From NCBI GenBank assembly GCA_964187785.1, contig OZ076409.1, positions 43,278,001 through 43,342,000 of the forward strand: 64,000 nucleotides of DNA, in the 5' to 3' direction. Within the stretch, counting starts at the first letter, position 1; every line of letters begins with the position of its first letter. Shown one piece after another: positions 6,044 to 63,659 of the stretch. The DNA comes from Amphiscolops sp. MND2022. Lineage: Eukaryota. The notes under the pieces are model-generated. The model was not told where the DNA came from. It did no database searches and saw nothing but the letters and a program-made list of their open reading frames with translations. A program made the position numbers and the translations under genes.

Positions 6044-6252
6044 CTAATCGAGATTTATAGCCCGAAATCAAATGAAAATGACCAAAATTGTTCTACCTAA
6101 TGTTACGTCAAGTACGAGGCACACATACCAGAGCTGGGACAATGCCTAGGTTGCTTTGACAGGAAACCATAGTCTCACTACAAGCCTAGACATCAGTTTT
6201 TCTCCCAAAGTGGTCTTCTCGAAGGACTTTGCTAACGTCAAGGAGACTCCTC

Positions 6253-7754
6253 TGTGATAATCTTCTCCTGTGCGGTCCTCATTTATGACCACAGAGTCAT
6301 TTAGATCAATGTATTGCATGCTCAAAGGTTGTATTGGCGTTCTAAGATCGTTTAAATTAGATGGTCTGAAAGGATTATCCTGTATTTCACATTCTCGATT
6401 TTCTGGCTCAGATGCGTTTTCTTCACCGTCCTCATTACTTGCGTATTTTGAAGTTCCTGCTCTGGGGGTGTTTTGTTCTGTTCGCCATATCGTTTGTTCG
6501 GTACGGATTGTGTTCTTCTGTTATTTTTCATCTCTTTCAGTATTTTCTCTAGTTTCTCATCCATTTCTTTCCTTAAGTTTGCTACTTCTTTGTTCGTTTT
6601 ATCTGATATTCTCTGGGTCCAAATTTGCATTTCATTTTCATTTTGTGTTCCACTGTCTAGAGCTATTTCTTCGTCCCTAACTGAACAACATTTTCAAAGT
6701 TACTTAAAGTTTCGATAACAGTTTCATTACCTTGTGATGTTTCTATTTCGGATGTGCTCAACTCTCTCTCTCAAGTGAGCGTGATTGTCCTCGTCTAGAT
6801 CTTCTATTTCTCTTGTTACCCATTTTAGTCAGGTTAAAATGCTGTTTCGGAGAGAAGAATTTCCATTGGAATGATGAGCAAAGTAGAATTAGGTTGAAAT
6901 AAAGTTGAAGAGAATGCACATATTGTTAAGTTATCAAAGTTGAAACAAAGGTTGTGAGGATGAGAAGAAAAGTTTAATCAGTCTGAAAGTTTTCTGTTGA
7001 CTGAATATTATTGGGTTTCTTACACTCCTTTTTGATTCGGCTTGAATTTAGCAGCATGACAACCAATTTGTGGAATGTCAAGGTTACATCACGATTATGC
7101 AATCACTAAAACTAGTACCCAATTTGATATAAAATAGGTTTGTAAGTTACATCACTTCTATAAATAGATTCCTGCATGACGAATATTTTCCTGCATTTTG
7201 ATTGGTCATTACACTGGCTGTACCAATCCGTTCATCGCTAATGAGAAAAATGTGGCAACACGTAGTATGACTCATATGTAGTGCAAGTGTTAATTCCAAC
7301 ATATTACCCCCATGCGTGATCAGATTGTTATGATGAATCATACTCTCAAATGCTATGATTAAGAATATTGAAAATGTGAATATGTACTGCAAGATGCTGC
7401 AAACTTAGTACAGCAATTCAATTCAAATACTTGAGTCAGTATGCGGTAATGTTACATAGAAGCCACGTATAATTTATTTTTTTCACAAGAATTCGCAATA
7501 AACAGTATTATGCGTCATGTAAGTTAACACCATGTAACATCTGGTAAATCTTGTATGAATGAGTATTGTTTTACAAATATGGCTAGCAACAATAGCAAAC
7601 AAATTCAGACATAGCTGATAATCAAAAGTTATTATAAATCCATACAATATAAGTTTCATGAAGCCATGAGTTTTCTCTGAATTCACTGCAGATGGGTGAG
7701 TCATTTGCCTTCAATGCTGCACCGCGGATCCAACGCAAGCTCTAGGCTGCGACA
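6253..7754 (-). repeat. 3' LTR of the large Gypsy element
   Basis: Near-identical to 20392-21891 (scattered substitutions, a few small indels); flanked on the left by TSD TCCTC. Confidence 0.88.
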
Positions 7755-8818
7755 GGCCAGCATTCTTGAAGCAAATGAGTGCTGCCTCGAACCCATCTAG
7801 ACAGGCACGTGATCTGATGTTTCTATCTCTCACTGTCTCGCCTGGGTATTCAGTTGCAGCTGTATAGGCCGCCAGAGCATCAAGGGCAACTTCGTTGTGT
7901 GTCCTGCCGCACCAGTGACAATTCCCCTGAACATGAGGCACAACAGGAGTGTTAAGTTGCCTTCGTAAGGGGTTCCTCGGTTGTTGTGCGTTGTTGTCAC
8001 TACGAGCAGGACCCACATCAGTCGTCTCCATATTGCTATGAGTGCCTTGGGTGTCCAGGTACAACTGACCATTGGCATTATAATAATATGCAACATTAAC
8101 AGGCCCATCTGGTTGCAATATCTGTGTACTCGGGTTGTATGAGGTTGTATCATGTTTTGAGCAGCTAATATTGGTAACTGGAATTGAGTGGCCGGTACAA
8201 CGAACTGGTTTACTATAGGTGTTTGCAGTATTCCTCCCCCGTTATATGGGCGAGTAAAGTTCGGTTGGGGAATCTCATGTGGAATTACCACGGGCGTAAT
8301 AGGTAAGGGTCTGATCGGCCCATTTCCTTAGGTGACAGCTGGAGGGATATTGCTGTCAGCATCAGACCGTATAGGTATTTGTCTTGCCGGTCTTTCGGCT
8401 CTTACAGCGGAACAGCCAACACAGGTCTACCATAGCTGTTTCTCACTGTTGCTCCCGCTCGATTCGAAGAATGAAATCGGTGAAATGTTGGGTAATTCAG
8501 TATCCTCTGAGATCATGCTCAGCACCTCTCTTTCGATATCAGTACCTGTGATATCAATCACAGAATCTTCTCTCAACTCAGGTTCGCTTACGGCGAACAA
8601 TCTTGCAGCATCTCCATTTACGAACGCAGTCATGGGGTCATTAAGTGGTCCCCGATTCTGAATCTCAGGTCTATGGGTTCTGAGTTAGGTTGTTCAGTCA
8701 GGAACTCCTCCCCAGAATCGCTCGAAATATTTATCAGTCCGGGAGAGTTTGTAGAAACAGACAGCATGTCTTCGTCAATCGTGAAGAGGTGAGAGTTTTT
8801 GGGGTATCTATTGTCCAT
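7711..8818 (-). pseudogene. Sense-strand accessory ORF of the Gypsy element (frameshifted, unknown function)
   Basis: ORF pieces 8630-8818, 8427-8633, 7830-8291 and 7711-8118 chain into one acidic/Pro-rich protein with a CHWCGRTH motif; the stop codon lies inside the 3' LTR. Confidence 0.55.
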
Positions 8819-9539
8819 TTGAGCTTGAAATTATCGACTGACTTGTTCCGTGAATATTCGCAGAAAAAACACTTGTCTCTTCTTTTCAGTTGGTGTATAT
8901 TTTCGCGGTTTTTAGGGGTGTCGTAAACAATCCTCGATGTCATCTTTCTTCTAACTTGCAATTTTCCTGGCGATTTCATAGCAGACTCAAAGTTATGCTC
9001 CTGTTTTTCATTTAAATAGCTCCATAACAAAATACAATCCACGTTGTGATTTCCGTTTATGGTGATAATCGTTCCAATTAGCACAACAAGATGAATTTTT
9101 TTTCGCAGCTTTCATATATGGCGAATAGAAGCGTCGACAAAGGCACATTAAACGATTATAAACAAATATGAATGAAATTTTCCATGATGAATTTTAAAAA
9201 CCCGGATTTTTTTCTGAATTTTACAAATTTTACATGCAAACCTAAATAAAATAGTGGGTAATATTAGGAATGAAAAGTTCATGGACGCAAAGTTTCTGTA
9301 TAATTGTGTATTTTACAAACTACGAAGTTTCTCAAAATTTAAGGTTCACACTCGTTTACTTTCTATTTCCATCTCATATTGTTTATTTCGGCATCATCAT
9401 GATGTCAACTGAATGATACACTGTTATCTTCATAGCAGTAATGCGATGAATAGGGTCATGAGATACTGTTTCTTTTTAGGTCAGCACCAGTTCAAGTTGC
9501 ACTGCAAGATGCTTTTCACTTCGTACTTTTCTTCAAACA

Positions 9540-9720
9540 GCCACTGGGGGCGGCGCATCATATATATGTAAATGAGCTTAGTTATACTGTATTAAATACC
9601 AATCTCTCTGGCAGGTTTGATCGGTTCCTAAATATTTCAGCCAATCAGCGCTCAGTATTTGCGCAAACATGTTAATGTAATTTGTTCAGCCGGAAGCGAC
9701 GCCACTTCTCATGTCCGTAT
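9540..9720. promoter_or_regulatory. Putative bidirectional internal promoter between the two cargo units
   Basis: GC-box-like gggggcggc (~9546), TATATAT (~9561), CCAAT (9599, 9641) and Ets-like CCGGAAG (9690) lie between divergent ORFs. Confidence 0.35.
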
Positions 9721-9913: not shown

Positions 9914-12900
9914 ATGGTGCGTTCGCGTTCTTCTTGTTCCCGCAGGAAAGCAACCCCCCCCCGCAGAGAAGAGCGGCAGTTGCGAGGAATCTCCGGTCAT
10001 CCACTACTGCGATAAGCTTGAAAATTGGTTGATTTTTCTGATTGACTCAGATAGTTCTTTTTTTTTCTTTGTGACGTCACGGATTTTAAATGCAAGTAAG
10101 CCAGACTCACATTTTAGTGTCGACTATCCTTTGATTTGTCAACTTCCGGTTTCTAAGTTTTAGGCAGAAATAATAATTTCCTGTTACTGATTTCTGTTAT
10201 CGACATCAGTACAATTCAGGATTTTTGTTTCAGATTCTTCCCCAACTCAGCCGCGAAGTAGAGTTTCTAAACCTTCTGATGCCAGCAAAGTGCCCGTAAC
10301 ACAACAAACTGTTTTACTGGAAAATTTCTCCCAACGGTCATTTCCGGATGATCTTCAACTTCCCCCAAGCTTGACCCCGGAAGTCCTTATCGAAAACAAC
10401 ATATCTGAGTTTGTCGACATTCTGGAGGAGTCAACTCACGCAGAACAACAGAAAGAAACAACTGCCAGTGATTGGGCTCAGCAAGGGATGAATTCTCTTA
10501 CTAACGCACCCGTAGGCGGGAAACTGTCTTGTACTTCATTTGTACAATGCGACATGCAACCCACACCAGTTAGGAAAGTCCAAGAAGAGGGAGTAAATTC
10601 TTCTGAACAAACTCCTGTGAGCAAGAATGCATCACCGTTCACTCGTTTCCTCACTCAACCTTCCTCCGTGAAGTCCAAGAAATCCATTTCTCCAGAACGA
10701 AAGAAAATTACACGGATCATCGATTCTCCGACTACCGGTAAAGACAGTCCTGGGGACACTGGGGAGGTAAGGCAGCAGAAGCGAGCACCCAGGTCCCGTC
10801 CAGGTTTGAAGATACGACTGGAACAAACTTGATCCAAGGATCCAGCAACACATTCACCTCCAAAAGGAGTTGCAGAACAATAGCTGAGGCTGAAACTCCT
10901 TCAAAACAAGCATACATTGAAGAGGATAGTGATGAGGAGTCGGAGGAGTCAGATGCTAGTACTGACTCAAGTTCTTCAGTTGAGTTGCTACCCAATGAAG
11001 AGGAAGAGTTCCCAAAAGCGAAACCGGTTAAACGAAAAAAAACAACAGGAAGAGACTTCTGCTCGGAAACGAACTAAGCCGCGACTTGTGCTAGCAGGGT
11101 GGATGTACCACAAATATCCAATCCTGAATTTCTTTGCCACCGCTCCCGCTGATGCTGCTAGATATCCACATAAATACCGGTGTCGGGTCTGTTTGTTAGA
11201 ATTGTCTCTGATGACAAAAGGTCCTTTGGAGATCCCTCACCACTACCGTACGGATGCCCATTCAATTAAAGAGCACCGAATACGAATGGAGACCCCGGGA
11301 CTCCCATTGTTCGACAAGAATCGAGAGAAACTGAGTGGCATGCCATTAAAGTATGCCAAAGAACGAGCTCGACGAGAGTACCCCGAAATTAGGAGATTAT
11401 TATCTGAGATTGGGACAGCAAGAACAGGCTGAAGTCGCTGGAGAAGATAACCCCAGTAATGAAATCTTCGCGCAACTGAATCTTCTCAAAATTGGCCTAA
11501 TGCATGGCGGCCATGCCATATCACAGCAATGGTGGCTTTATGGCATGATCTCGTTAAGGAAACAAAGACATCCGAAGCCATTGTTCAGCACCATAGGCGA
11601 CCACACCACTTTTTTGCAAGTATTAATCTGTTTTTTTGTAGTTAGGCAGGGTTAATCTTCTTTTTACTCAAAGAATGTTTGGTTTTTAAGGGCCTCGTCA
11701 CATACATGTTCCGCGAGCTACCTTCTTTCTGTGTGGATTCTATCGAAGCCAACGGCAGTTACTTCTCAAACTAACACAGTATGCGAACGAAACGCGCTTA
11801 TTTGTTCATTTCTGGGCAAGAAATTCCCTCTATGGTCTTTACATTGGAGTCTTCCCCGGGAGAGTCTATACACCTGGAACCCTCCTGCTGCTTTTGAGTA
11901 ACTTCTTTGCACTCATTGGGAAAGATGCTCATTTGTTTTTCAAGGCTGGCTTTGCTCCACGGATCGTCTGGACAGTGTCAAGAGTCCTCTCACAACGCAA
12001 GAAGTTTTGCAGGATCCCCTCATTCGATGCTGAGCACTTGGAGCAGACAATGTTGGTCCCATCTGTACAGATCTTGCATCGATTTGACTTTCGAAGCGTT
12101 CTCGACTTCTTACTTTTACGACTTCCTTCGGCTTGTAGCAGCCCCTGGTTATCATCACTGCCCGATTTTCAACACGTTAGAATCCCCATGTTTCATGCTC
12201 CATAATCTTTTTGTTATAAGAAGAAAAGTTTTACATCTTGATGTTTTACATCTAATGTTAATCCAAAAATTTCCAATTCTATTTGCTGCTCATTGCCCCG
12301 AATTCAATGTAGTTTCGGGTTTTTACAAGTTTCCGCAGTTAAAGCATTTTCTTGTTGTATTTTCAGCATTGTTGTATTTTCAGCATTTTTCTTTTTTCGA
12401 ATGAGGTATTATCTTTCTTTTATGCAGCATAAAGTTTGCGAAGTTTGCAGAATAAGGAAGCATAATAGGGTCATCCAATTCATTTTTCTTTACTTTATGG
12501 AGGTTATATGCGATGTTATGTAATGCGATTAGTCATTTGTTCATTTCTGATTTCTTTCTGTATTTCGTCATGTTTTTGCACGTGTTACTTCGAACTCGAT
12601 TTTTGTAACTAGGTTTCCAAAGACTTTTCGCACGTGCTACTAGATTCTAGTCAGTTCGTGACTCATCGTGACTTCTGTATTTTAGACTGTCACAACATTG
12701 GATTACGATCTGCCTCGTGCCGTTGAGATCATGAACCATTTGATTACTAACTGAAGTAAAATGATCCAACATATTCAATGCAGCAGACGGATTCCCTCCC
12801 ACCGTTCCCACATGCAAAAGGTTTGTTTCTAGTTTTCTTCTCCTTTCTATTATATCTGTTTTTCTAAGTTTCTTCGATTGTTTTACATAGGTGTTTCTTA

Positions 12901-14306
12901 TCCAACTTGATAATTGTTTTCATTTGCTCATTTTGTTTTAGCCCTCAGGGATGGACGATTTGCTTCTTCGGGACAAGGTGTTCGTTGTTCGTCTGTTTGT
13001 AACCCGGAACATTCTCAGTCAGTGTAAGTATTCCCTTCTTATACTCTGGTTTCTATTCTCTTTTTTGCATGTTAAACTGTTTTCCACTCCTAACCGCTCC
13101 TTGTTCTTGAATCGCCAACTCATTTTTCGTTCTCTATTTTAGACAACTCAACTCTTGGTGAGGTGTTCAATTCGAAATCTGGAGGCTTCAGACTTTACAA
13201 CCAGTTTTGTGTGTTTGTTTACACACAACTCCAGAAGATTTTGCCTGATTCCCATCTCGGGCCAATTTCCGATTGGGACGCTTACATGAAAACCAACATG
13301 GACGACCCCACATTGCCCTTCAAATCAGTAGATGACGTCTTGCTCGATCATGACCTGTCGGATTTGCTCAAGACAAGCAAGATTTCAACCCCTCGTCGGT
13401 TTGTGAGTCAGATTGTTCTACAAGTACTTCATCAAGTTATTGTTGACGAACGACATTGCTACTTCCGCTTTCGTACGGTGGCTTTCTGCCTTTGATGAGC
13501 CTGTCGTCAGAGTGGGTCGTGAGGCAGATTACACCGAAGCCATTCAACTCCTCTCCGGATATTTTGTCCAGCAAAAATGGATTGCCCCTAGTGTAAAACC
13601 TGTCATAGTCAGCGAGTACTGTTCACTCGTAACTAAACTGCGCTCTGACAAATTCCTTGCCGCCAAAGATTGGGTAGAGACATTTTCTTGCCATTACGAG
13701 TTACAGAGCCGGGCTGAACTGTTCGACCTGTTCAAAGTTTGTTGTGAAGCGCTTCGTGGGCCTTGCCTTGTTCCTCCTCCGTTTACCGTATCTATTCCTG
13801 GATTACGATCTGATGCATTCGAGTTTTCGTCCTGTGTCAGAAGTTTGCAGTGTTCTTGGCTTCCATCCAGAAGTGTGAAAATTTGTTTTTGTCTCCAACA
13901 GCTTTACCCCGTGCCTTTGAGCTTGTGGAGAGAGTGCCAGGACTTATCCTCAAAAGGAAATTTTCTGTGTGGAATCTCTTATCTTCCACTCATTTCCTCA
14001 AAACTGGCTTGTTGGCATCCTTGGAGGAATATTACGCAAAAAGTGGTTCGGTGGAGGCAAAAGGATGGATTACAACTGACGACAGGTCCAGCTTTTCCCC
14101 TGGGTACGTTTCTAGTACGAGCAGTAAAGACAGTTGCGGAGAGAAAGATTGACTCGACCCCTATTGTGAGTCCTGTGGTTCAGCGCCTGACTGAAGTCCC
14201 GGTTATTCCTGATCGCATGGTTTCGGGTTCAAAACAGAAGAAAAGGAGTAGTGCTATTGTCCTCTTGAAGATAACTCATCTCTTCCCGCAAAGGACGGTT
14301 TTCTGA
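9914..14306 (+). pseudogene. Antisense, intron-containing cargo gene of the Gypsy element; Zn finger plus hAT-transposase-like features
   Basis: Coding blocks ~10234-11619, 11691-12175, 12686-12820, 12942-13023 and 13143-14152/14306 are separated by T-rich gt...ag segments; motif YRCRVCLLELSLMTKGPLEIPHHYRTDAH; several frameshifts; first exon at 9914 is tentative. Confidence 0.65.
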
Positions 14307-14407
14307 TTTGTTTTAAGTACTTTTTGTTTGTATTTACTATTTCATTTTAAAAGAAAAGAAGAAGATGAGAAGTAAGACGACTTGAGATTTGTTGGTCTTT
14401 GTTTTTA

Positions 14408-17400
14408 TTATCTGTATGAGTCTGAAAAGTTAGAGTTTGGGTTAGGTCGTAAATTGTATTTTTCACCACGTGTATTGATAGGGGTTTTTTCTTTTTGAAC
14501 CTCATCATTTTTTTGATTTTCATCTGTATCTCCTGGGGATTTTTCTGCATCAATAGTAGCGTTAGGTTGTATCTCTTGCTGATTATCAATTTCATCAATT
14601 TCATTTCCTGCATTTTCGGTTGGGGTTTCTACATTAGGAACGGTAGTTTGTTCTACCGGGGCTCATCCACTGTTTTTTGACATTTCGAGGGAGGGTGGGC
14701 GGTTTATCGGTACATATACTTGTTTGTCATCTTGTTCGTTATCTGGGAGTTCTGTGTCAAATGGATCTGTTCCAAAGTTTGTACCCCATGTGTGGGCATA
14801 CAGGTCATCGTGTGTTACTAATATGTTGTCATTTTTTGCCAATCTGTTTCTCTGACGAAATTATCTGCTAGTGAAGCACTAGGTGTAAATTTTCTCAAAC
14901 GTATTCGGTGTAACAGTTGTGTTTTGTTTGTCCCTAGCCTTCGTACAAGGTAATTATTGTTAGGTAGGACTTTTTTGACTTTGTGAGGACCTATCCAACG
15001 GAATTCTTGGAACGGAATTTTCTGTTGCTTGTGTGTCTGCCTTCGGGTTCAGTATATAGCAATAGTCTGTTGTAGTAAGCGGTGCTGCTTTTGCCTTGCG
15101 GTCATAGTATGCTTTATATTTTAAGTATGACTGCATGATATTCTTTTTGGTTTGATCATTGAGTATCTCCATTCTGCGTTGTATTTCTTCTGCAATGTCA
15201 GTCTGTGGAGTATACCGTGGGTTAGGATTGTAGCCTAGCTTGTAGTCTAGAATGTTATGTGGTATCCTGCCGTGGAAAACACGGGTGGGTTCACATCCTA
15301 AGCTGGCATGATACGTTGTGTCGTAGTTTAAGACTGCCAGTGGTAGGAATTTGTGCCAAGTATTGCGAAATTCACCTGTAGCTGCTTTCAAATGTGTTTC
15401 TACTGTAGCAGGAGTGCGTTCTAGAATGCCGATTGTTTGTGCATGTTTTGTCGAAGCATGTTTTAGTTCAACTCCAAGCACTGCTGCTACTTCTCGGGTG
15501 ATTTGTGAGTTGAATTGAGTGCCCATGTCAGTTTATATGGTCGTTGGTAAATACGCGTGTTTGCACAAAATGTCCAAAATGACTCTTGCGACTGTAGGGG
15601 CTGTGATTCGGTTTGTTGGGTAAGCAAATAAATATCTTGAGAAGACATCAAATGCTGTTATGATGTTATCAAAACCTCCACTTGGTGGGAGATTAGGTAA
15701 GATGTCCATATGAAGAATATCTTCTGGACAGAGGTCCCATTCTGGACAATTTAGAAGTTCTGTTTTCAGTAAATCGTTATTGATTCGTTTGTTTTGAATG
15801 CACATCTGGCAATTATGTACCCAATTTTTGATGTGTTTTGCTAAGCATGGGTATAAGTATTTCTGTCGCGCTTCTTGTATCATTTTTGTTATTCCAGGGT
15901 GATTTGCATTGTGTCCATGCAATGCCTGTAGGAATTCTTCGAGAAGTTGTTTCGATACGAGTATTTGGTAGTGTGAGATTTGTCCAATATCATTGTAGTA
16001 TTTTCGTGCAAGAATGTCTTGGCGAATTTCGATGCGGGTTATGTTTTGTAGGTAATGTTGGTAGCCATTGTCTTGTGTGAACGCTGATTCATCAAAAGGT
16101 TCACCTTTTATTTTTGCTCTGAGATGGCGAAGGACTGGGTCATTATTTTGTTCGAGTCGGATTTTTGCGTTGTCTCGAAAGTGTCCTTCCCGATAATCTA
16201 TTGTTCCAGCAGTTGGTTTATGGAAATTTTGTAATTCAGTTGTTTCATTTTCCGGTTCATTGTGTGTTTATGTTTGTGACTGATTTCTGATATTGTCTTT
16301 TTGTTCCCAAAGTGTTTTTTTATCATTTTCATTGTATGGGTGGATGTGAATTTGTTCTTCTTCGGCTATGCCAGAGGATTGGATATTAACCTCGATAGCT
16401 TTTGTTTGTATGTCGTTGCGTAAATTCATTTCAAGGTTTTCTGTCGGATTGATTTCCGTTCGCGACAAGGTGTCCGCATTCATTGCTCCTGCTACGTGTG
16501 CTATGACGAAATTATACTGCAGGACGTAGTCGCATGCGTTCCATAGTGCTGGAGGAATGATTTTTGTTTGGAAAAATCTTGTGACTGCTCGGTTGTCAGT
16601 AAAAACAATTACGGGAAAAGTACTTCTCCACATTAGATGTCCATTTTCTGAGAAAGCAAAGAAGATAGCTAAAAACTCCTTCGCATATACTGACATTTTT
16701 AATTGGGTGGGGTTGAAAGTTTTTGAACCAAATGCAAGTGGGGCGTATGTTTTGCGTTTTGATTGTAGTTTTTGTTGAGGGTCGTCTTCAATCATAATCG
16801 CATATCCTGCAGCTAAAAAACTTGCATCTGGCATGACGATTAGTTGTTCGTCTTTGAGTGGTTGTTTGAGTGCCATTTGGCAAGATTGGAGTAGGAGGTT
16901 GTTCAACTGTTCAAAATTGTTTGTATGTTCAGTAGAAATGTAGAATTTATTGGTTTCTTTCAGCAGTTTGAAGAAAGGGGTGAGTCGTTCCGAAAGGCGT
17001 GGTATATAATTTCTGCAATAGTTCAGAAAACCAATATACCTTTGAAGGCCTTTTTTGGATTTTGGGAATTAAAGTTTCGCTAAGAAATCTTTGACTTTTT
17101 CTACTTGGGAAGAAACTCTTTCAGGTGTAATCGTTCTTCCCAGGAAGTCGACTTGTTTCACTCCAAAATGGCATTTTGACATTGACAATTTCAGACCTGC
17201 GTTCCGTATACAATCAAAGACTGCTCGGATGTTTATACACAGTTGTGACACTGTGTTTGCTGCAATTCCGATGTCATCGACGTATTGGGCGCATTGGTCT
17301 GCTTTGATGAGGGTGTCTAAGTATTCTTGTATGAAACTGGAGAATGCTGATAGTGATCGACTAAGGCCTTTTGCTAAACGCCGATACGCAAAGGTTCGGC

Positions 17401-19200
17401 TAGCAAAGTTAAAGGCCAACATCTGAATTGATTGGTAATCTGCCATCTGAAGGCATTGATACGCTTGTGAACAGTCAAGTTTGAAGAATAATTTCTTTCC
17501 TGCCATATGTTGGGCTGCATCGGAAAGTGTACTGACTGGGTGGTTGTTGTTTACGTAGTCTTCGGAGATGAGATTATTTATTTTGCGCAAGTCGACTAAG
17601 AGTCGCAATCGACCATTAGATTTTCGTTGCGCAGAATGGGACTTGCATATTTAGAGAAAGGTAGAGTTGTTATTATACCATACTTGTGAAGTAAGGCAAG
17701 TTCTACCGTGATGTCGTCTTTTAGGTTGATCGGTGTTGGAAGGCTTTGGCTATATGCTGGTCGGTCATCGTTTGGTGTGAGTTTGACTTTGAATTCTCTA
17801 TTTGTTCCAAAGTCAAACATGTGTCGGGCGAAAATATCGTGAAATTCAACTAGCAGTTTTTCCACTTTTTGTCGTTCAAACAGTGTGAGTGTTGTGTCAC
17901 TCCAGTCAAAATTGTCAAGAAATGTTTTGCGTGATTGTTCGTCGTCTTGTGGGTTAAGTTTTTCTAGTGTTTGAAGTTCCACTAGTTCATCAAATAGTCG
18001 TTTCTGAATGGGTGTGTATGTTGTGGGGTCTCCGGGTTGTTCCAGTGTTGGAAACCAGTTTTGTTCCGTTTTGTCTTCTTTGTTGTTTACTTTTAGAAGT
18101 TCATTGAGGTATACATCTGTAACTTCAGTATGTTGATGCATGATGATTGTTAGCATTGAAGGGTTGACTGACTTGATACATTTTAACTGTTCTGGGGTTA
18201 AAACTTGAAAGACGGCTAGATGTGTGTCTTTTATGATTGTACAGGGTAGTTTTGAGAAATTACAGATCTGGTATCCTACTGCGTTATTGTTGACTGTGCA
18301 GAGGGAAGACACAAGGAAAAGTGTGTCATGATCTTCAAGGTGCGTTGATGGCGTTACTATGCCCGTTGCATCCTGTTCTATCAAGTGTGGCATTCTGCTT
18401 GCAATAAGCATGGTTTCACCCGGTTGCAGTGTGTATGTTGCCTCTGCAAGTAATGGTGTTGATTGTCGTGTTAGAAGATTGTGATCTGGTTTCAACTGCA
18501 TTGATAAATGCGGAAAAGTTAATACTCCTTGTCGGATGTCGAAAATGGCATTGTTCCTTTTTAGGAAAAAAAGTCCAATGAGGGGATTCGGTATGACATT
18601 GAATTTTTCTTTGAACAAAAAATCTGCCACTTCAAATGTTAGGCAGACTGTTCCGATTGGCGTTTCCAATTATCCGTTTGCTACCAGGTTTTGGAAAATG
18701 GGTGCAGGACCTGTATCTGTTATTGCCTCGGGTGCAAGAAGTTTGATCTTATTTAGATCTTTTGTTCCAATATTGCACTCGTGAGAGCTCCAGTATCGAT
18801 TAAGCCGTCAAGTGTAAGCTTTTCAAAATCCATCGGGAAGTAATACATATGGCGTTTCTTTTTAGAGTCAGGTTGGTTGATAGGAGAAGCATTGGTATAT
18901 CTGTTTCTTTACTAATTGTAAGATGATTTTGAATTTCATCTTCTATGAGGGGTAGTTTTTGTGTTGATGCAGGTTCGATTGGTATTTCTGTCTTGTGTTT
19001 GGAGAGGTTCAAGATTGTTTTTCGGAAGAGGTTCTGGTAATTTTTGTGGTGAGGTTTCGTGTTCAGATTCAAACAGATTTTCTGGTTTTTTTTCGTAACT
19101 TATGTCAAGATGTGTGGTTATGTATCTGTCAGGGGCATCTCTGTATATTTCATACAAATCGTCCTCTGATTCGTTTTGTTGAGTTCCTGGAGTCTGAGAG
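14408..19200 (-). pseudogene. pol: Gypsy pol (protease, RT, RNase H, integrase), frameshifted
   Basis: LIDTGA protease (~18800); RLLVDLRKIN, LDCSQAY, YVDD RT (17069-17608); DAS...KEFLAI...TDN RNase H; HPG...CQMC and MDI...DVFSRY integrase; ends YNLRPNPN...YR*. Confidence 0.93.
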
Positions 19201-19393: not shown

Positions 19394-20963
19394 TTAGTGT
19401 CCACTTCGGGGGCGGTTTTCCATATTTGCTCCAAAGTAGCATGTTGATTCCTGATGTCCTGGTGCGTTACAATGCGTACAGCGTATGGCATCAGGGTCTT
19501 CTTCCAGCTTACGACGTTTTGCTAGTTTAGCGCAGTCTGCTGCCTTGTCCCCCGTAATTTTACAGTAAAGATTTTGGTCATCTTGCAATGTATTGTTGGG
19601 CACTGTTTTTGGCGTTTGTTGCTTCTTTTTTGTTGTTGCAGTTTTCTGCTGCGTTAGTTTGTCTTCTGCTTGTTTGTTGATTGCCGTCAATTGCGTTTTA
19701 AGGCCAGTGTCTTCTGATTCAAGTCCGTTTAATTCCGTCTCACGTTCGAGATGTCGGACTATTTGCTCGTATGTTACTTTCTCAAGGTAAGCTTGATTAA
19801 TAGAACGTTTCAAGTGTGGCGGCATTTTTGCATATAATAGACTTGCTATCATTTGTGATGCAATGTCACCGAAGGCTTTTTCGGCGCTTTCTTGTAATTC
19901 TTTTAAGAAGTCTGGTAGTTTTTGGCGTTCCGGGTCAAAAACCAAGCGATGAAATCTATGTTTTGCGGACGCACTAGATTCAGGCTTGACATATTTTTTA
20001 CGTAACACTACCAGTATGTCTTCAAGCGTAGTTGTTGGTGTTCGTTGGATGTTTTTGAATGTTTTCAATGCTAATCCACGCAAATGTGCGTGAAAATGAT
20101 TTATTTTCAATTCCTCAGTTAATGTGGGTTGCATTTGGAGTGTTGTGTGGAAAAAATCTTCAAAAAATTCAAATTTCTCGTTCTTTTTCAATTCACTTTT
20201 GAATGTGAGTGTATTTTTTGGGTGAAAGAGTGATGGTTGTGTGTTGCGGCTTGCCAGTTTCTCAATAGCCATTGCTATTTGGTTAACGGGGTCTTGCTGA
20301 ATATTAAGTGGTTCAGCAATCAGATGTCCATTGTGTGTTGTTGTGTTGTTTGAGTTTTGACGATGAAGTGGTTTGATAGCTCCTGTCACCATGTGATACT
20401 CCTCTCCTGTGCGGTCCTCATTTATGACCACAGAGTCATTTAGATCAATGTTTTGCATGCTCAATGGTTGTATTGGCGTTCTAAGTTCGTTTAAATTAGA
20501 TGGCCTGAAAGGATTATCCTGTATTTCACATTCTTGATTTTCTGGCTCAGATGCGTTTTCTTCACCGTCCTGTCCTCTTTACTTGCGTATTTTGAAGTTC
20601 CTGCTCTGGAAGTGTTTTGTTCGCCATATCGTCTGTTCGGTACAGATTGTGTTTTTCTGGTAGTTTTCATCTCTTTCCGTATTTTCTCTAGTTTTTCATT
20701 CATTTTTTTCCTTAGGTTTGCTACTTCTTCGTTCGTTTTATCTGATATTCTCTGGGTTCAAATTTGCATTTCATTTTCATTTTGTGTTCCACTGTCTAGA
20801 GCTATTTCTTCGTCCCTAACTGAACTAACATTTTCAAAATTACTTGAAGTTTCGATAACAGTTTCATTACCTTGTGATGTTTCTATTTCGAATGTGCTCA
20901 ACTCTCTCTCTCAAGTGAGCGTGATTGTCCTCGTCTAGATCTTCTATTTCTCTTGTTACCCAT
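19394..20963 (-). pseudogene. gag: Gypsy gag; the N-terminal ~188 codons lie inside the 5' LTR
   Basis: ORF 19394..20464 with a C-terminal CTHCNAPGHQESTC knuckle; the frame extends upstream to ATG 20963 (MGNKRNRRSRR...) across a 2-nt GA slip, one TGG>TGA stop and a 5-bp duplication. Confidence 0.8.
20375..20391 (-). promoter_or_regulatory. Primer-binding site (PBS)
   Basis: TGGTGACAGGAG... directly after the LTR terminal ...TATCACA; resembles a tRNA-Leu-type PBS (TGGTGTCAGGAG), but the tRNA identity is not verified. Confidence 0.65.
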
Positions 20964-21891
20964 TTTAGTCAGGTTAAAATGCTGTTTCGGAGAGAAGAAA
21001 TTCCATTGGAATGATGAGCAAAGTAGAATTAGGTTGAAATAAAGTTGAAGAGAATGCACATAATGTTAAGTTATCAAAGTTGAAACAAAGGTTGTGAGGA
21101 TGAGAAGAAAGGTCTAATCAGTCTGAAAGTTTTCTGTTGACTGAATATTATTGGGTTTCTTACACTCCTTTTTGATTCGGCCTGAATTTAGCAGCATGAC
21201 AACCAATTTTTGAAATGTCACGGTTACATCACGATTATGCGATCACTAAAACTATTACCCAATTTGATATAAAAAAGGTTTGTAAGTTACATCACTTCTA
21301 TAAATAGATTCCTGCATGACGAATATTTTCCTGCATTTTGATTGGTCATTACACTGGCTGTACCAATCCGTTCATCGTTAATGAGAAAAATGTGGCACCA
21401 CGTAGTATGACTCATATGTAGTGCAAGTGTTTATTCCAACATATTACTCCATGCGTGATCAGATTGTTATGATGAATCATACTCTCAAATGCTATGATTA
21501 AGAATATTGAAAATGTGAATATGTACTGCAAGATGCTGTAAACTTAGTACAGCAATTCAATTCAAATACTTGAGTCAGTATGCGTTAATGTTACATAGAA
21601 GCCACGTATAATTTATTCTTTTCACAAGAATTCGCAAAAAACAGTATTATGCGTCGAATAAGTTAACACCATGTAACATCTGGTAAATCTTGTATGAATG
21701 AGTATTGTTTTACAAATATGGCTAGCAACAATAGCAAACAAATTCAGACATAGCTGATAATCAAAAGTTATTATAAATCCATACAATATAAGTTTCATGA
21801 AGCGATGAGTTTTCTCTGATTTCACTGCAGATGGGTGAGTCATTTGCCTTCAATGCTGCACCGCGGATCCAACGCAACCTCTAGGCTGACA
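20392..21891 (-). repeat. 5' LTR of the large Gypsy element
   Basis: Direct repeat of 6253-7754; adjacent to the PBS; TSD TCCTC on the right. Confidence 0.88.
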
Positions 21892-22596
21892 TCCTCATTT
21901 AGAGCTCCGAGGCAACGTGCCAGCACCTTTGAAGTCCGGACACGTCCCCCAAGCACGTGAAAAACTATTCCTATATACTGCCGAGGTCCAAAAAGTCAAT
22001 CAGCTGAAATTAATTATATTGGATCTAAAGGTGATAAAAACAAACGATCTAGCATATCACACATCACCAAATACTTGAAATCTGTAGCAAAACAATAAGA
22101 AATATTACAATAAGCCGATATTACATCTACAACAGTCTCAGTGAGTTTTGTGTCTCCATTTGCACAAAAGTTGCACATTTCTTCAGATCTCGGGGGTATC
22201 TGTATTCTCTTCTGAACTCAAGATGGTACTCACTGGGGCTGTGTTTCTCATTCGGGAAAGATATGTAGTCTTTCTCTGTGAATTCTGGGAGTTTTTCAGT
22301 CTTTTTCTGCTTATAGGGAAACCTCTCTGTGTGTTCCTCGTGAACCGTCTTCTTGACTGATTTTGGGTACTGTCAGGTCGGCCATGTCAAAACTAAAATT
22401 TTTCAAAAAAATTGAACAGGGGCCTTGAAACTGGTGGACGTTACATAAGGTCTACAACAAGGTACACTTTATGAAGTGTGTTAGTCTATCGATGAGCGCA
22501 CGAGGCTCATATTCCGAATGTTGTAGTTTCCGACCTACCAATTCTCGAGTTTCTACAAAAGAATGTCGTATAGGGACTAGCATATTACTTGCACCA

Positions 22597-23081
22597 GGTA
22601 TGCGGAAAACTCGTCGAAAACAGCTCGCCGAATGCAACTCGTCGAAAACAACTCGTCGGCGGAAAACTGGTCGAAAATTAACTCGTCGAATGATAATTAA
22701 GTGCAAACTCGTCGAATTCTTACAGGTTACCCACTGCGATGATTCAGTTCTAATTATGATTTAATTTTCGTTAATTGATGCGTAAAATCTTAAGTTTTAC
22801 GCAGAATATAGCCCCTTTTTAGTTATATAATTGCTTGAAAGGATTCACTTTTATAGTTTACAGTGTAATACTTCATAATAATTTAGAACTCCATAACACG
22901 GTATGATCACAAAGCTAGCACTATATTTGCCTGAGATTATTTTCTATTCTTGCGACGAGTTTTCCGCCGGAGAATTTTCGGCGAGTTGCTTTTCGACGAG
23001 TTTTCCGCCTAGTATTTTCGACGAGTTGTTTTCGGCGAGTTGTTTTCGACGAGTTGTTTTCGACGAGTTTTCCTAGATTCC
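22597..23081. mobile_element. Foldback MITE (Mutator-like) with ~15-bp subterminal repeats
   Basis: Inverted arrays of aaaactcgtcg / cgacgagtttt; CTTGCACCAG duplicated at 22588-22597 and 23081-23090. Confidence 0.8.
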
Positions 23082-23716
23082 TTGCACCAGAAAGCAGCCA
23101 AGAAGAATGTATGCTTGCAAACAAAAAAATAATATTGCGAATTCTAAAAAAAATATTTCAACATTAGCATTTGACATTTATTAGAGTCCTGAAAACAACT
23201 ATTTCGAAATCAAAATTAGTCTTGCCATTGTGGCATTTCTGACAGAAAGAATTCGTTTCACTTCATCAAAAATGCAAAGAAAAAGTTGAGTTTTTTTATG
23301 AGTACTAAAGCATTCAGTTTTCAACCTTTCTTTGATTAATATAAAAGTGATCTCGATTGATTTGAATACATTTTGTATAATTAAAAAAATTCCAATGTAA
23401 CCTTGACAAATTTCTATGCCTTGTCGTCCTACTAAACTTCTGAGCCCTGAGCGTCACCTTTTGATTGTTCACCACAATTGATGGTCTTAAAAGCCCTTGC
23501 TAGGCTCGAAAAAAACTGTCGCGTGGGTTATTCGGGGCTTTCGGAAATCAAAATGACGCAACTATACGAGACTATTTTTTCTCCAGCCTCATTCCAAGTT
23601 TTTAACTTTTCTGGTCAATTTGTTAACTTTCAAACTTTTCTGGTACAATTCTAAAATGCATTTGAAATGTGCCAAAACTGATTCAAACAATTTACAAGCT
23701 ATATGATACCGAAGGG

Positions 23717-24540
23717 CGGGAGGCGGAAATTTCGTCGCCAGAAATTTCGTCGTCAGAAATTACGTCGTAGGAAATTTCATCGTATTAGCAAATCCAGAAA
23801 TTTCGTCGTCAGAAATTTCGTCGTCTGAATTTTCGTCGTATTGATTAAAATTAACAGCGTTAACGAAAAGACATCATTTTAATTATTCAATTATTAAGTT
23901 ATTAAGTTAGATCTTAAGAACACGTTTCAGTTTGACAACAAAATGGGATCAAAAAGTTAACTGCATCTAAACAACTCATCAAGAAGGTTATTGAGCAATG
24001 GTATACCTATTTTCAGTCCTACCGGTGGAACTACTCACCGGGGCTTCACAATACAATTTAGGCTTGTTCCAGGGGTGAATTTTTGTTTTTTTAATCATTA
24101 TTTTAAAAATCATGGTAATTTTTGCTTTAAGTGTCGAAACGAATTCGTGTTGGGGGGGGGGGGGTGGGTTTAAGACAAAAGGTGTATCTGGGGGTATAAA
24201 GAACATGGTCCGAAACTGTTTCTCTCAAAACCATAGCTAAAAGTAGTCAATGATAGCAATAATTGCACAATTATCGATAAATATTAAGATAATTATCAAG
24301 ACTCGATAATTATTAGGACTCAATGATAAAACGATTCCTAAAAGATTAGAGAAAATGCGACGGTTTATAGAACGTAATCACCGACGACGAAATTTCTGAC
24401 GACGAAATTTCCGACGACGAAATTTCTGGCGACGAAATTTCTGACGACGAAATTTCCGACGACGAAATTTCCGACGACGAAATTTCCGACGACGAAATTT
24501 CTGACGACGAAATTTCCGACGACGAAATTTCTGGTAATCT
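23717..24540. mobile_element. Foldback MITE with 15-bp tandem arrays (gacgacgaaatttc[t/c])
   Basis: Left array 23725-23840 and right array 24381-24532 are inverted; partial flanking duplication gaaggg; exact ends uncertain. Confidence 0.7.
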
Positions 24541-26812
24541 GAAGGGAAGGTCTTCTTTTTGTTTTCTGTTGTTTTCGCTTCAGAAAATGCCTTTAATAGT
24601 ATGAAAGTTCGCAAAAGTCTACAGAACGTCAAACAACTTTCAGTTTTGGTTTTTTTGACCCTCAGGAAGGGGCCCCAATTCGGCCGTTGAGCATCTCATT
24701 GGCTGTTTCAATTTTCTTCATTGAGTGAAATCAATGCTTTGACAGTTCGGCTGGATGAAAACGCTTTCTGTTAACAAAGAAATCTTGGCACGGGGCTATT
24801 CCATGTAGCAGAGGGAACTGTTTTCTTAACAATTGATTGTTTTCCAAAAGAACTGACTGTTAACTAGGGTGGACATAATGCCATCAATGTGATAATTGCT
24901 AAATTTTGCTTATTTTTGATAGGATTTTACAAAAAAACGTCTATTTTGTTAGAATAGTCGTTATTAATCCTTTTCCAGTCAGTTTTCAAGTCTAAATAAC
25001 TTATGACGCCATCCAACGCTTCAAACTAATTTCTGATACGAAAAGCAAAAATATATATATTTCATCAGTTGTTTGCGTCCTCATTCGTTTGTTTTGTACG
25101 AACAGCACGTTGTTATATCTTTTTATAGACAGCGGTTGTATTCTGTGTTTGGTTTCAGGACGCAATTCCAAACATAGCCAAGTCATTCCAGAAGGCGGCT
25201 ATTAAAATTTAAATGCACTTTGAGGCTACGGACGAATTGATTACATGCATACAGGGAAAACTGGTGAAAGAGACGGCTGAGTTTATTCGCTGATTTTAAA
25301 AAAAAACTACCATCCGTCAGAGATACAAGATGGGTTTCTTGGTTGAGCTGTGCCCTTTGTTATGCCAGAAATTTACCAAGAATCCGCGAAATCGTCAAGT
25401 CTTATGATGGGGATGGGCCTGCATTGACCAGCAATATTTGAAACTCGGAAACAAAATGTGCTGCCTGCTCAGTTGCCATACTCAAAAAATGCATTGGCAC
25501 AAACATTGCGTTGGAACAATTGTCCCAATGCTAAAGAAACTATTAGACTCTGATCGCTCTTTTAAGCCCGGAAATATTGTAAAACATTTTACTTTGTATT
25601 TTAGAACAAATATACTGGCTTAAAAAAGTTCCTAATTGCAGTATTTTTCTATTTAATGCAAAGACAGAAAATGCCATATTACGAAACGTTAGGGCCATTT
25701 TTCTCGAACTTCAAGCGCCAGAAAAACCACCCGACCGAAAACAAAAAACAACAAAAACCTGAAAAAGAAGCGTTTTCAGAATTCAGTTAAAAACCGTTTC
25801 GTATCTTTTTTTTTCTTTCAAAGACAAAAGTTTTTTATGATTGCGAGGAGTAAAAAAATTTTACTCGAAACAATCTTTTCATTGAACTCCTATTGGACAG
25901 TATCACTAAAAAATTTTTAGAAACAGCTGATACTGAACACTGAAATAATTTCTCAAACAACTTCTCCGTTCAAATGAACCCATTGGTAATCTGTTTTAAG
26001 TAGTCTGGTACCAAAGAAATCAACAGCTCGGTAATATGTCTGCAATTGAAAAACTTCTGACTTTCTTCGAAGGTTCCGACTGTTAGTTTTTCTCTGTCTT
26101 TGCTGCATAACAGTTACACAATGAGAACATATGTGAAACTCGTCTACCATTTCCAGACTTTTTATAACAGCCAAAACAGATGAAACGGCTTCAGACGTTA
26201 TTCCTGCTCACCTGGCAACCAAATGAGGGAAATCAAGGTGCTTGTGCTTTCAACAGCTAATACGAGGGTGCATAAAAGAGTTTTAACATTCCTTTCGTCT
26301 ACGGGGACATGTATGAAACTCACGATACCTCCTCCGTTGACTCTGTATGTGATTTATCCCAAACTATTTTAGATTTCAAACATTACCTTGGTTGAGAAAA
26401 AATACAATCCTCGCAAGAATGCTACGAGATGACATGAAACTTGTAAAATTCTGCCAGATTCTGCCACAGTAGTTCTTTTCTCAACGATAAACATTTGTTT
26501 GAGAGAACGTGGAATGAAAAAAAAAACAAGCTTTCATTTGAAGCCAGGAGATTTTTCAGACCCAGTTGAAACATTGTCTTCAACGTTCCGTGTACTTGTG
26601 AATTTTTTTCTGCAAATTTTTTCCCCCATTCCCACATTCACTAGTTTAGTTTCCCGAGGCCACCAACAGACGCTTCGCTAAGTGAGTCCTAGGTCGAGCT
26701 GGAAAACGGGGAAACAACAGTTATCACGTTGTGATCGAATGACTGCAAGTTTTTTACAAGCAGTAGTAGAAGAATGCGTTCAACAAAGTTTGCAAAGTCA
26801 AGAAACAAATTC

Positions 26813-42156: not shown

Positions 42157-42210
42157 AATGTTAACTGATGATGAATGATGTTACATTCGAAAAGCTTTTT
42201 AATTCAACAC
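42157..42210 (+). ncRNA. Minimal type-I hammerhead ribozyme (PLE pseudo-LTR, copy 1)
   Basis: ttaa-CTGATGA-t-GAATG atgtta CATTC-GAAA-AGCT-TT-ttaa: core boxes, stem II, palindromic stem III (AAGCTT) and stem I ttaa/ttaa. Confidence 0.75.
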
Positions 42211-44622
42211 TTGTCTTTTTATTCCTCAATTTTACAATATCAAGTGTGTTACCCCGAAGATTCCTATACTGGGAATTGGCAAGGCGTGATGTACTGAAGC
42301 AATACCGCGCCTATGAAAAGAAATATATTCAGTTACAACTTTCAATACAACGGATTTGTTTTTTGGAGTCATGTGTTTCTCTTCGTCTTATCCCGAGTTT
42401 CTTGAAGTTCAGAGTTCCGGCCAATGGATGTTTTAACGAATCGACTGTCCTGAACTTCCAAGGAAAACTATTGCAACAAGAGCTGAAGAAGGCAAAGGAC
42501 GATCAGAAACGTGTTGAAGTAGAGCTGAAACGACGAAGGGATGCAGTTAAATTTGACGTGCCTGAAAAATTACATCCTTCATTGTGGTTTCATTTGAAAG
42601 AATTGTGTAAAAAACGTGTACAGGAGGCTAAAGCAAGGCACCAACGAAAAATTGAAAATGCCAGTGCTATGCAAGATAAGCCCCTTTTGAACACAACCGG
42701 CTATCTGAAAATTCCTAGACGACATTAAAGTACCTGATTATGTACGTGAGTTGCTCAGATATGGACCCAAACACCCATGTCGGACCTCTTTTCAAGAAGA
42801 ACAGTTTTTGGCCAACATAGACCTACTGTTGGAAAGAGCTTCCATGGAAAAAGTACATCAGGATGCTCGCAATAAAATCAATGCCCTCACGGTGGGGTAT
42901 GTAATGAAGTGCAAGTATAGAAAGCCTGATAAAAACATCAAAAGTACCAGACAGTGGTTGAAAGACCAGGGCATACTGGCAGTGCCGTATGACAAGGGTA
43001 CCGGTTTTTGCCTTATGAAAGCTGAGACATACAATCTTAAGGTCAGAAAATTGCTTGAAGGCCCCCAGTTTGTTCCTTTGGCACCAAAGAAAAAAGATCT
43101 GACGTTAATCGAGGAAGTTCGTGTTTGTAATGTGCTTAAAACGCTTCAGTCTGATGGTAAGATTGACCAAAAACTGTTTCAAGCAGTTAAACCCATTGGA
43201 TCACAGCCTGCATGTTTCTATGGTCTCGCGAAGGTCCACAAGAAGGTTATTCCGCTGCGACCTATCGTCTCAATGCCCGGGTCAGCATACCACCCATTGG
43301 CAAAGCAGTTGGCAAATTGGATATCAAAGCTACCGGAGGCCTCAATTTCTTGCAACGTTGGTCAGGTCATGAGACAACTCTCGGACATCCAACTTCAATC
43401 TGATGAACAGTTAGTTAGCTTGGATGTAGAGGGCCTTTCCACCAATGTCCCTGTCAACGAGGCCATTGAATACACAACTGAGCTCATGTATTCGCCCAAC
43501 CATGACTTTGCACCACCAATTGATCAAGATACCTTTGTGAAGCTGCTGAAACTTGTATGTGTTGATGTGGTGTTCTCTACCCATCAAGGTTACTTCAAAC
43601 AAGTGGACGGTGTAGCTATGGGCAGCCCCTTAGGTCCCCTTCTCGCAAATGTGTTCATGTCAAAATTTGACAAGGATCTAGGCCTCTTCAGTTCCTTCTA
43701 TTATAGGTATGTGGACGACATACTGAGAACTATGTTGGTAGGAGGAGGAGAGTACCTGTTGAATTTTGCGAACACAATGCATCCAAATCTCAAGTTCACA
43801 TTGGGAAGTGAGGATAATGAAGGTGGACTATCATTTTTAGACATGCGTGTGGAGCATTTTGGGAACAAAATCGAAGTCTCATGGTACACCAAAAAAACGG
43901 ACACTGGTGTTGTTCTCAACTATAACAGCGAAGCACCAAACATTTTCAAGTGTGGCATCGTATCAGGTTTCGTACATCGCATATTCAATACATGCTCTTC
44001 GTGGCTTAGATTTCACGATGGACTGATGAAAGCACAGAAGATTTTACGTGACAATCAATATCCCACTAGTTTTATTGAAAAAATTACCAGTCACACGCTG
44101 GACAACATTTTGGCACCGGTGAAGAGTGGTCTTCCTGCGAAGCCGAATCGTCCGAAGGCTGATCTGAACATCGGTTTAAAGTTAATGTACAATGGGCCGT
44201 CATCCATTACCTTTGCCAAGAATCTGAAGAAGACCCTAGAACCATTGGCATCACTCAATGTCTACTTTACCACCACGAAATTGAGGTCAAACTTGCCTAG
44301 CCTGAAAGCAATTGTTCCTAAACCTATTCGGAGTCATCTTGTATACGAAATGAGTTGTTCTGCTTGTAGTGGAACCTATGTTGGACAAACCATCCGACAT
44401 TTAGACGTCCGAATACACGAACACAAGAACAAAAGCACGCCAGTGGGCCAACACTTCTCCAATTGTGGATTGGAATTGAGCTTGGAAGACGTGCGAATAC
44501 TGGCAACTGAACAGCATCCCAAAACCCTATTGGCACTTGAAGCTGTACTCATTCGTAGAGAGAAGCCCATCCTCAACACGCGCGACGAATTTAGAAGCCA
44601 CACGCTGAACTATGTTTTTTAG
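42168..44622 (+). CDS. Penelope RT / GIY-YIG endonuclease polyprotein with one frameshift near 42710
   Basis: DKG, YGLAKVHK..PLRPIVS, GVAMGSPLGPLLAN, RYVDD and LSFLD RT motifs; VYEMSCSACSGTYVGQT...RIHEH GIY-YIG; ORFs 42168..42728 and 42751..44622 are joined by a 1-nt shift. Confidence 0.9.

Positions 44623-45215: not shown

Positions 45216-63659
<18,444 letters not shown>

Follow-up and report, generated by a model that had tools for sequence, protein, structure and literature searches.

How does a gene with five spliceosomal introns persist inside an element that is copied through RNA, and what could its product do for that element? The question is raised by a stretch of 64,000 nucleotides (nt) from Amphiscolops sp. 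MND2022 (GenBank assembly GCA_964187785.1, contig OZ076409.1, positions 43,278,001 to 43,342,000 of the forward strand), referred to here as the window, in which a 15.6-kb Ty3/gypsy long terminal repeat (LTR) retrotransposon on the minus strand carries a gene in the opposite orientation. Introns persist through retrotransposition when they are reversed in the genomic RNA, and those of this gene probably survive because they lie in that orientation. Comparison of copies points to a conserved antisense gene of six exons, the product of which (about 1,100 residues) may be a hAT-type protein without a catalytic triad that acts in trans as a DNA-binding activator or anti-silencer of the non-coding DNA of the element; taken as a whole, this reading has roughly an even chance of being right. 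The element is bounded by LTRs that are 95.9% identical, with TG...CA ends, and by a 5-bp target-site duplication (TSD), TCCTC. Its pol gene, interrupted by stops in the window copy, matches the Pfam domains RVT_1, RT_RNaseH and Integrase_H2C2, with rve under the cut-off. A preliminary description, made from the letters of the window alone, had placed an antisense, intron-bearing gene inside an LTR element, and the LTRs, the TSD and the minus-strand pol, together with conserved splice sites, bear this out.

The copies come from a search of the organism's own assembly (1.07 Gb), in which protein searches provided the best 150 of 5994 candidates for the finger and the best 150 of 1600 for exon 6, while more distant groups were recovered with other queries. 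Seventy-three copies were fetched, picked non-randomly to span the range of identity and all selected as gene carriers. Every one of the 73 is LTR-borne, some in very young elements, and none is the free DNA transposon that had been considered as the opposing case. An integrase match lies beside the gene on the opposite strand in 68 of them; the other five comprise two that run into the end of pol, two full LTR elements and one truncated piece ending in pol. Whole elements have one and the same layout even where protein identity falls to about 25-30%; their LTR pairs reach 99.9% identity, and 5-bp TSDs occur in further whole elements too. The gene is consistently antisense between pol and the 3′ LTR in the copies examined, the position that defines the antisense open reading frames (ORFs) called aORF-3R.

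Splicing is supported by several lines of comparison. GT or AG stands at 463 of 472 mapped splice sites (63 copies), as against 433 of 9440 shifted positions (4.6%); 16 intron slots, of which 7 are lost and 9 rearranged, were set aside for this count, and offsets of a few bases were allowed in 43 copies. Exons 3, 4 and 5 have fixed lengths in intact copies (486, 135 and 82 nt) and intron lengths vary, that of intron 3 between 321 and 1300 nt among these copies, with introns 2-5 at identical places in the most distant clade, at 25-30% identity and represented in full by one element. When spliced with their own letters, 18 of 29 copies give open frames of 1,052-1,149 codons, the 29 being the 32 copies with an open exon 2 minus three with weak or rearranged models. 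Moreover, intron 5 (phase 1) is precisely missing in six copies of one subfamily, and intron 4 in a single copy, L073; the junctions of these exact losses equal the predicted spliced form and appear to be the nearest available thing to cDNA evidence. These comparisons indicate that the gene is spliced. Frames of 650-710 amino acids, which could be taken for loss of intron 2, actually result from stop-free in-frame introns with GT/AG ends.

The conservation of splice sites and the purifying selection that had been proposed as checks are both apparent. Among 18 pairs drawn from different subfamilies, the proportion of nonsynonymous differences (pN) is 0.12-0.40 and that of synonymous differences (pS) 0.73-0.84; synonymous sites are saturated and the protein is conserved, which indicates purifying selection on the antisense gene. 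Relatives occur in sequence libraries, with 342 matches in one search and 75 in another, and the sources shown are ENA assemblies (10 looked up). The gene family probably extends to other genomes because, for one library relative, identity to the best match in this genome is no more than 31-35%; a search for full-length spliced relatives of 701-2000 amino acids found none, and a scan of JGI metagenomes gave no relative. Partial tandem duplications of the antisense gene, of about 2.3-2.6 kb, are seen in L002, L081 and L097 and as close paired matches.

The model of the gene in the window, built from an alignment with five sister copies, comprises six exons and five introns in the coding region, the intron phases being 1, 0, 0, 0 and 1 in order (Table 1). 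A sixth intron did not appear as a conserved site in 14 copies scored. All motifs listed beforehand are present, namely GT at 11620, 12176, 12821 and 13024 and AG ending at 10233, 11690, 12685, 12941 and 13142. As donors, 12176, 12821 and 13024 stand. That of intron 2 is, by homology, at 11616, where the window copy has GC and its sisters have GT; 11620 is a second GT lying 4 nt downstream. Donor 1, at 10012, had not been listed; it is AT in the window and GT in all five sisters, and was thus lost here. The window copy is a decayed pseudogene, because donor 1 is lost and its exons contain nine private frame-breaking indels (near 10007, 10771, 11035, 11380, 11510, 11763, 13414, 13854 and 14121). 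It reads through to 14306, beyond the stop that its sisters have near 14265.

Table 1. Coordinates of the antisense gene and of its host retrotransposon in the window
Feature	Position	Strand	Remarks
Exon 1	9914..10011	+	ATG; basic and Ser-rich; intron 1 phase 1
Exon 2	10234..11615	+	donor 11616, phase 0
BED-like zinc finger, C-x2-C-x16-H-x5-H	11181..11261	+	most conserved part of the protein
Exon 3	11691..12175	+	486 nt in intact copies
Intron 3	12176..12685	+	89 to about 1300 nt across copies
Exon 4	12686..12820	+	135 nt
Exon 5	12942..13023	+	82 nt
Exon 6	13143..14306	+	sisters stop near 14265
Candidate internal promoter, AGCCAATCA box (9639) and CCGGAAG (9690)	9639..9696	+	putative
Segment deleted in non-autonomous derivatives	10373..14161		6-nt GACCCC microhomology at 10373-10378 and 14156-14161
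3′ LTR	6253..7754	-	TSD TCCTC at 6248-6252
5′ LTR	20392..21891	-	TSD TCCTC at 21892-21896
Primer-binding site, TGG-initial, adjoining 5′ LTR	20379..20391	-	
pol: reverse transcriptase, RNase H, integrase (Pfam, gypsy order)	14400..18669	-	low end approximate, from homology
gag-position ORF, starting within 5′ LTR	19394..20578	-	
orfA, second extra gene, sense to gag-pol	7711..8828	-	broken here; end overlaps 3′ LTR

The encoded protein has the predicted organization of a hAT transposase. Exon 2 specifies a long low-complexity N-terminus, a basic cluster, a BED-like finger and a helical region at the place of the hAT dimerisation domain; exon 3 encodes the predicted RNase H strands β1-β5, from which the first catalytic Asp is absent, and the start of a helical insertion; exon 6 continues with the helical insertion domain (Hermes 365-565), a Pro-rich segment at the place of the catalytic Glu and a disordered basic tail. 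The finger had already been recognized from its C-x2-C...H-x5-H pattern and is found at 11181-11261; the spacing of its first three ligands, C-x2-C-x16-H, equals that of C51, C54 and H71 in Hermes, as given in an excerpt of PMC10368747. The N-terminal part was modelled from a naturally occurring frame that reads through an intron 2 free of stops, using an alignment of 83 rows (mean predicted local distance difference test, pLDDT, 71). In this model the finger domain is predicted with confidence and the helical linker resolved poorly, after which come a β1-β2-β3-α-β4-α-β5 succession and helices; region 118-189, at the dimerisation place, has low pLDDT in this monomer model.

Structural comparisons of the models lead mainly to Hermes. 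Foldseek ranks it first, second and eighth with the N-terminal model (E 1.6e-3, prob 0.96, 309 columns). In VIA, residues 5-312 of this model superpose on Hermes 22-264 (Z 7.1, 170 residues, root-mean-square deviation (rmsd) 9.4) and residues 193-312 on Hermes 142-264 (Z 6.8, 114 residues, rmsd 3.7). The exon-6 model (pLDDT 50) aligns through its residues 1-207 with Hermes 365-565 (Z 4.4, rmsd 4.6 over 142 residues); no other alignment in its list is longer. Both Hermes ranges are colinear with the protein, and the gap between them corresponds to 126 unmodelled residues versus 101 in Hermes, so that two separate models with moderate scores suggest an RNase H core broken after β5 by a helical insertion. 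Among the structure matches listed, transposase superfamilies other than hAT and integrases amount to one Mos1 row and one IscB row, which speaks against none of the remaining superfamilies. The hAT-like order of segments proposed earlier thus finds agreement in two independent predicted models, and an RNase H fold, the lack of which would have spoken against it, is predicted. The comparison that had been suggested with HHpred or Foldseek against known structures divides: the structural half leads to Hermes, while the sequence and profile half is nearly nil. Accordingly graded, hAT ancestry of the product is likely and not proven, because the scores are moderate and the sequence profiles almost silent.

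In Hermes, catalysis requires D180, D248 and E572, as stated in an excerpt of PMC2533014. The corresponding registers in the antisense protein were deduced from secondary structure and from the end points of alignments, and one of the exon-3 rows is out of frame. The end of β1 is never Asp in any row (Gln, Asn, Ala, Thr, Glu and others, with Glu in 6 rows), in agreement with the earlier remark that no clear catalytic Asp could be seen. At the end of β4, 53 of the 58 rows have Gly and 3 have Asp. At the Glu place, after the equivalent of Hermes 565, a Pro-Pro-x-Phe sequence is found, with Pro in about 39 of 46 rows, and the CxxH motif that should follow β5 is absent (Pro in 43 of 58 rows, no His). 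An Asp does occur two residues past β4 in 30 of 58 rows, and because of it the second catalytic position is uncertain. Under either register, the alignment supports a DDE triad (Asp, Asp, Glu) that is incomplete in every aligned copy.

A further property of the gene is its independence from the backbone that carries it. This exchange, the exact intron losses and the gene-less derivatives do not figure in the preliminary description. Elements 95-99% identical in integrase carry gene cassettes that are 61-73% identical. For the pairs C5a/C3b, C13a/C3a and L132/L136, identity is 96-98% in gag-pol and 94-97% in the LTR and orfA, versus about 70% in the gene; for L087, L088 and L093 compared with L095, it is 99.5-99.7% in integrase and 66-67% in the gene. 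Conversely, one allele sits on integrases that are merely 86-88% identical. With 27 of 52 rows used and the groups taken from the cargo tree, approximately unbiased (AU) tests reject, for two alleles, a grouping as integrase clades (p 9e-56 and 0.002). These patterns indicate that the gene is swapped among gag-pol backbones by recombination. Local hypermutation was considered as the source of cassette divergence and discarded in favor of recombination, because one and the same allele occurs on different integrase clades.

Elements that have lost the gene are also informative. Of 30 loci found in a DNA search, 17 are without it through one microhomology deletion and keep the LTRs and the upstream spacer; part of pol is also missing in 16 of these 17. 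Because such derivatives retain the LTRs and the spacer, the gene appears dispensable in cis, which is consistent with action in trans. The 10378-14153 junction had been a candidate for a splice junction or an empty insertion site; the short form is a deletion instead, because the segment is present in far older subfamilies and the exons continue across the two junction points. The loci L014-L030 represent a non-autonomous family that is abundant and has undergone as many as three microhomology deletions, affecting the antisense gene, most of pol and orfA. In this family the loss of the gene preserves the reading frame and joins the beginning of exon 2 to the final 35-50 codons.

Upstream of the gene, a CCAAT box is a candidate for an internal promoter. 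The sequence AGCCAATCA is found there in 18 of 42 copies, as against 1 of 42 in an exon-2 control; RRCCAATCA lies upstream of the gene in ten of ten distant elements, and a CCAAT box stands 260-450 nt ahead of the ATG in 10 of 14 copies scored. The non-coding DNA of the element also contains clusters of C(A/C)GCATA in the LTR, the spacer and intron 3, which are strong in 7 of the 16 elements tested (Poisson p values between 1e-7 and 1e-32), weak in 6 and absent in 3. Intron 3 holds tandem arrays of this motif in other subfamilies and three GCATAA/TTATGC copies in the window. At L042:7290-7950 and in its sisters, intron 3 contains a 40-bp tandem array of variable copy number, the short motif of which recurs in the LTR and the upstream spacer.

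For the role of the protein, DNA-binding activation or anti-silencing of its own element is the best guess and a likely one by analogy, because the BED domains of Hermes bind short subterminal repeats (PMC10368747, in excerpt), the VANC protein of VANDAL elements binds tandem repeats of its own element (PMC5735166, in excerpt) and transposases are reported to activate cognate copies, the TnpA of Spm being also reported to derive from a transposase (10.64898/2026.08.24.746577, in excerpt). The internal CCAAT-box promoter would drive a spliced antisense mRNA, and the genomic RNA would hold the introns reversed and preserve them through reverse transcription. Basic clusters may take the protein into the nucleus, where the BED finger, on its catalytically dead transposase scaffold, would bind short clustered motifs; if bound in the LTR, in the internal promoter and in intron 3, it would keep the element transcribed. 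Template switching between co-packaged RNAs could swap alleles, and occasional copying of spliced mRNA could remove single introns. A more specific version, in which the transposase was domesticated as a sequence-specific anti-silencer in a multi-allelic cassette, and in which the mRNA of a rare allele that escapes small RNAs reactivates the family, is possible and tentatively held. In this same tentative reading of an allelic counter-defence, the alleles would be ancient, as their synonymous sites are saturated, and would be reshuffled on a single gag-pol backbone.

Several observations weigh against a hAT-derived activator. Foldseek gives zero matches at E ≤ 0.001 with the N-terminal model and nothing with the exon-6 model, the last half of which has pLDDT <50. 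The Z score of 7.1 is tied by CoaX and by retroviral integrases, the alignments of the tied integrases covering roughly 80 residues and being thus shorter than that with Hermes. No hAT Pfam match was obtained with the ORFs of the window or with three exon alignments, and zf-BED appears in 1 of 18 cases at E 0.71. When its profile is compared with those of six canonical hATs from this genome, the probabilities are 0.06-4.2% and the finger alone aligns, where the hhalign score is 26.5 versus 13-21 in 20 shuffles. Downstream of the stop no poly(A) signal could be found, and within subfamilies the ratio dN/dS is noisy (0.04-3.6 in 6 pairs). The C(A/C)GCATA motif is weak in the clade of the window (1.8-2.6 per kb versus 0.5 in the flanks) and missing from the most distant clade; several cassette alleles share this one motif, and because of this allele-specific targets lack support. 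Beside these points, the C-terminal hAT domain PF05699 gives no Pfam match, in a region where model confidence is low; PDB sequence profiles return nothing for the antisense protein, the ESM Atlas returns no usable match, and hidden Markov models of the gene failed to detect the canonical hAT ORFs of its own genome. That genome encodes several canonical hAT transposases that are intact and intron-less and have the DDE, CxxH and RW motifs (L114-L119), none of them close in sequence to the cargo gene.

This near silence of sequence comparison favors another source of the protein, either a host gene domesticated from a hAT (ZBED-like) or another DDE superfamily with an insertion domain (Mutator, Transib, P, Kolobok), the product being a DNA-binding protein all the same. 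Five introns would fit a host gene, and Hermes is perhaps just the nearest model, since solved structures span few transposase superfamilies. Such a source is nevertheless improbable: no free or single-copy relative is among the 73 copies examined, other insertion-domain transposases are absent from the structure matches listed, and the BED finger, helical linker, RNase H core and insertion are colinear with the residue ranges of Hermes. A DNA transposon passively nested in the LTR element, and copied without function, could be suspected from the derivative junction, which resembles an empty site with one GACCCC copy. Two elements scanned show no terminal inverted repeats (TIRs) or 8-bp TSD around the gene, exons cross both junctions, older subfamilies hold the segment, and purifying selection, open frames in young copies and the LTR-borne state of 73 of 73 copies all oppose passive nesting, which can hardly be credited unless free copies with TIRs exist beyond the matches sampled.

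The function of a dead transposase could also differ from activation. Chromodomains or host factors tether integrase in other LTR elements, and the protein might likewise steer integration by binding host DNA or chromatin and tethering the gypsy integrase, each allele swap opening a new target niche. Transposase scaffolds bind DNA ends and target DNA, and many alleles on one conserved integrase would suit a diversification of targets. The motif clusters, however, are internal to the element and not at its flanks, and the TSDs seen show, by eye, no obvious common motif, which makes targeting rather unlikely. Alternatively, the gene would restrain its element, as an LTR repressor, as a dominant-negative decoy against competing hATs, of which the genome has many canonical members, or as an antisense RNA that tunes silencing, convergent transcription with pol giving the double-stranded RNA for which a role has been raised in plant antisense ORFs (PMC7264820). 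Restraint is an unlikely function, given that strong selection at the protein level demands a role for the protein, that the latter is too distant from the sampled hATs for easy co-assembly, and that a pure repressor favors gene-less autonomous elements, yet 16 of the 17 gene-less copies also lack part of pol.

The remainder of the host element has its own peculiarities. The gag frame begins inside the 5′ LTR and reads through the primer-binding site (20379-20578 in the window), and a Pfam scan of the gag-position ORF gave no match; a purine tract beside the 3′ LTR is not evident (7755-7775). Like the antisense gene, orfA sits between pol and the 3′ LTR. It travels with the LTR and not with the antisense cassette, and in intact copies encodes a low-complexity protein of 260-380 amino acids with a C-terminal C-x2-C...C...C motif kept in all clades. 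An env of the errantivirus type was ruled out for orfA by the absence of a transmembrane helix, no 19-residue Kyte-Doolittle window exceeding 1.34 in 13 of 13 copies. By description only, orfA is reminiscent of CERV, the Cys-rich export factor that Cer1 encodes (PMC10309623, in excerpt).

Elsewhere in the window, a Penelope-like element with reverse transcriptase and GIY-YIG lies at 42165-44622 on the plus strand; a direct repeat of 172 bp occurs at 42058 and 44609. At 22604-24551, inverted tandem arrays of a 15-bp unit form two pairs, as do those that terminate foldback or Mutator-like elements. The regions 26800-29500 and 47000-58200 contain a dispersed family of repeats whose GGGACCCTTT cores occur in both orientations, and positions 1446-1549 form a perfect 104-bp palindrome.

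By its position, the gene is of the kind of the antisense accessory ORFs, which many plant gypsy elements carry between pol and the 3′ LTR and which are also found in fungal ones; their origin and role are described in the literature as unknown, and examples are gene23 of maize Grande, rice RIRE2, TRP28 (PF04195) of Retand, and Boty (PMC7264820; PMC11963269). It shares with them place and orientation, conservation across copies and a predicted nuclear DNA-binding role; an internal promoter has been demonstrated for Grande, and a candidate CCAAT box exists here. In contrast, no introns are described for them in the excerpts, the word 'intron' being absent from PMC11963269, and five conserved spliceosomal introns are present here; PMC7264820 reports no similarity to other transposable elements (TEs), whereas here a whole hAT-type architecture is predicted, together with cassette exchange. 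PF04195 (TRP28/Transposase_28) is absent from Pfam scans of the ORFs of the window and of the exon alignments. With Hermes and other hATs (PDB 8edg, 4d1q, 2bw3), the protein shares the spacing of the first three finger ligands, the RNase H core with its helical insertion and colinear ranges. The DDE triad, CxxH, TIRs, 8-bp TSD and any hAT Pfam match are all missing, and a low-complexity N-terminus of about 300 residues, a C-terminal extension and mobility through retrotransposition are added. The gene is thus not a hAT transposon, and the models make its product a predicted dead hAT-type DNA-binding protein.

VANC and TnpA are likewise accessory proteins, with short tandem motifs of the non-coding DNA of their own element as proposed targets. 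They serve the DNA transposon that encodes them, while here a class II protein would serve a class I element; neither 'retrotransposon' nor 'LTR' occurs in the text of bioRxiv 10.64898/2026.08.24.746577. Other accessory proteins of LTR elements have been described, none of them antisense in the excerpts of PMC13547354 and PMC11728184, and retroviral antisense genes such as HBZ (PMC11963269, in excerpt) are, as here, spliced accessory genes of a retroelement. A full-text literature search covering few subscription journals retrieved no intron-bearing, transposase-derived gene of an LTR element, and Repbase or Dfam could hold the family unseen. Dead transposases domesticated by hosts (the ZBED family, MUG, FAR1) have lost catalytic residues and retained DNA binding. 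The present gene differs from these and from HBZ in that the domesticating host would be a retrotransposon, that it is multi-allelic and still mobile, and that no bZIP or retroviral accessory fold is present.

Transposases are known to have been domesticated by host genomes and within DNA transposons; in this case the beneficiary would be a retrotransposon. The system opens the role of antisense accessory ORFs of LTR elements, and sequence-specific anti-silencing, to testing, and the many young, intact alleles that sit on near-identical backbones provide natural controls. Its spliceosomal introns appear long-lived in a retroelement, and their exact single losses would offer a countable model of intron loss mediated by reverse transcription. 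Pipelines for TE annotation would overlook such genes. If the reading of an allelic counter-defence is true, the family would represent a domestication from class II to class I that may be tested allele by allele.

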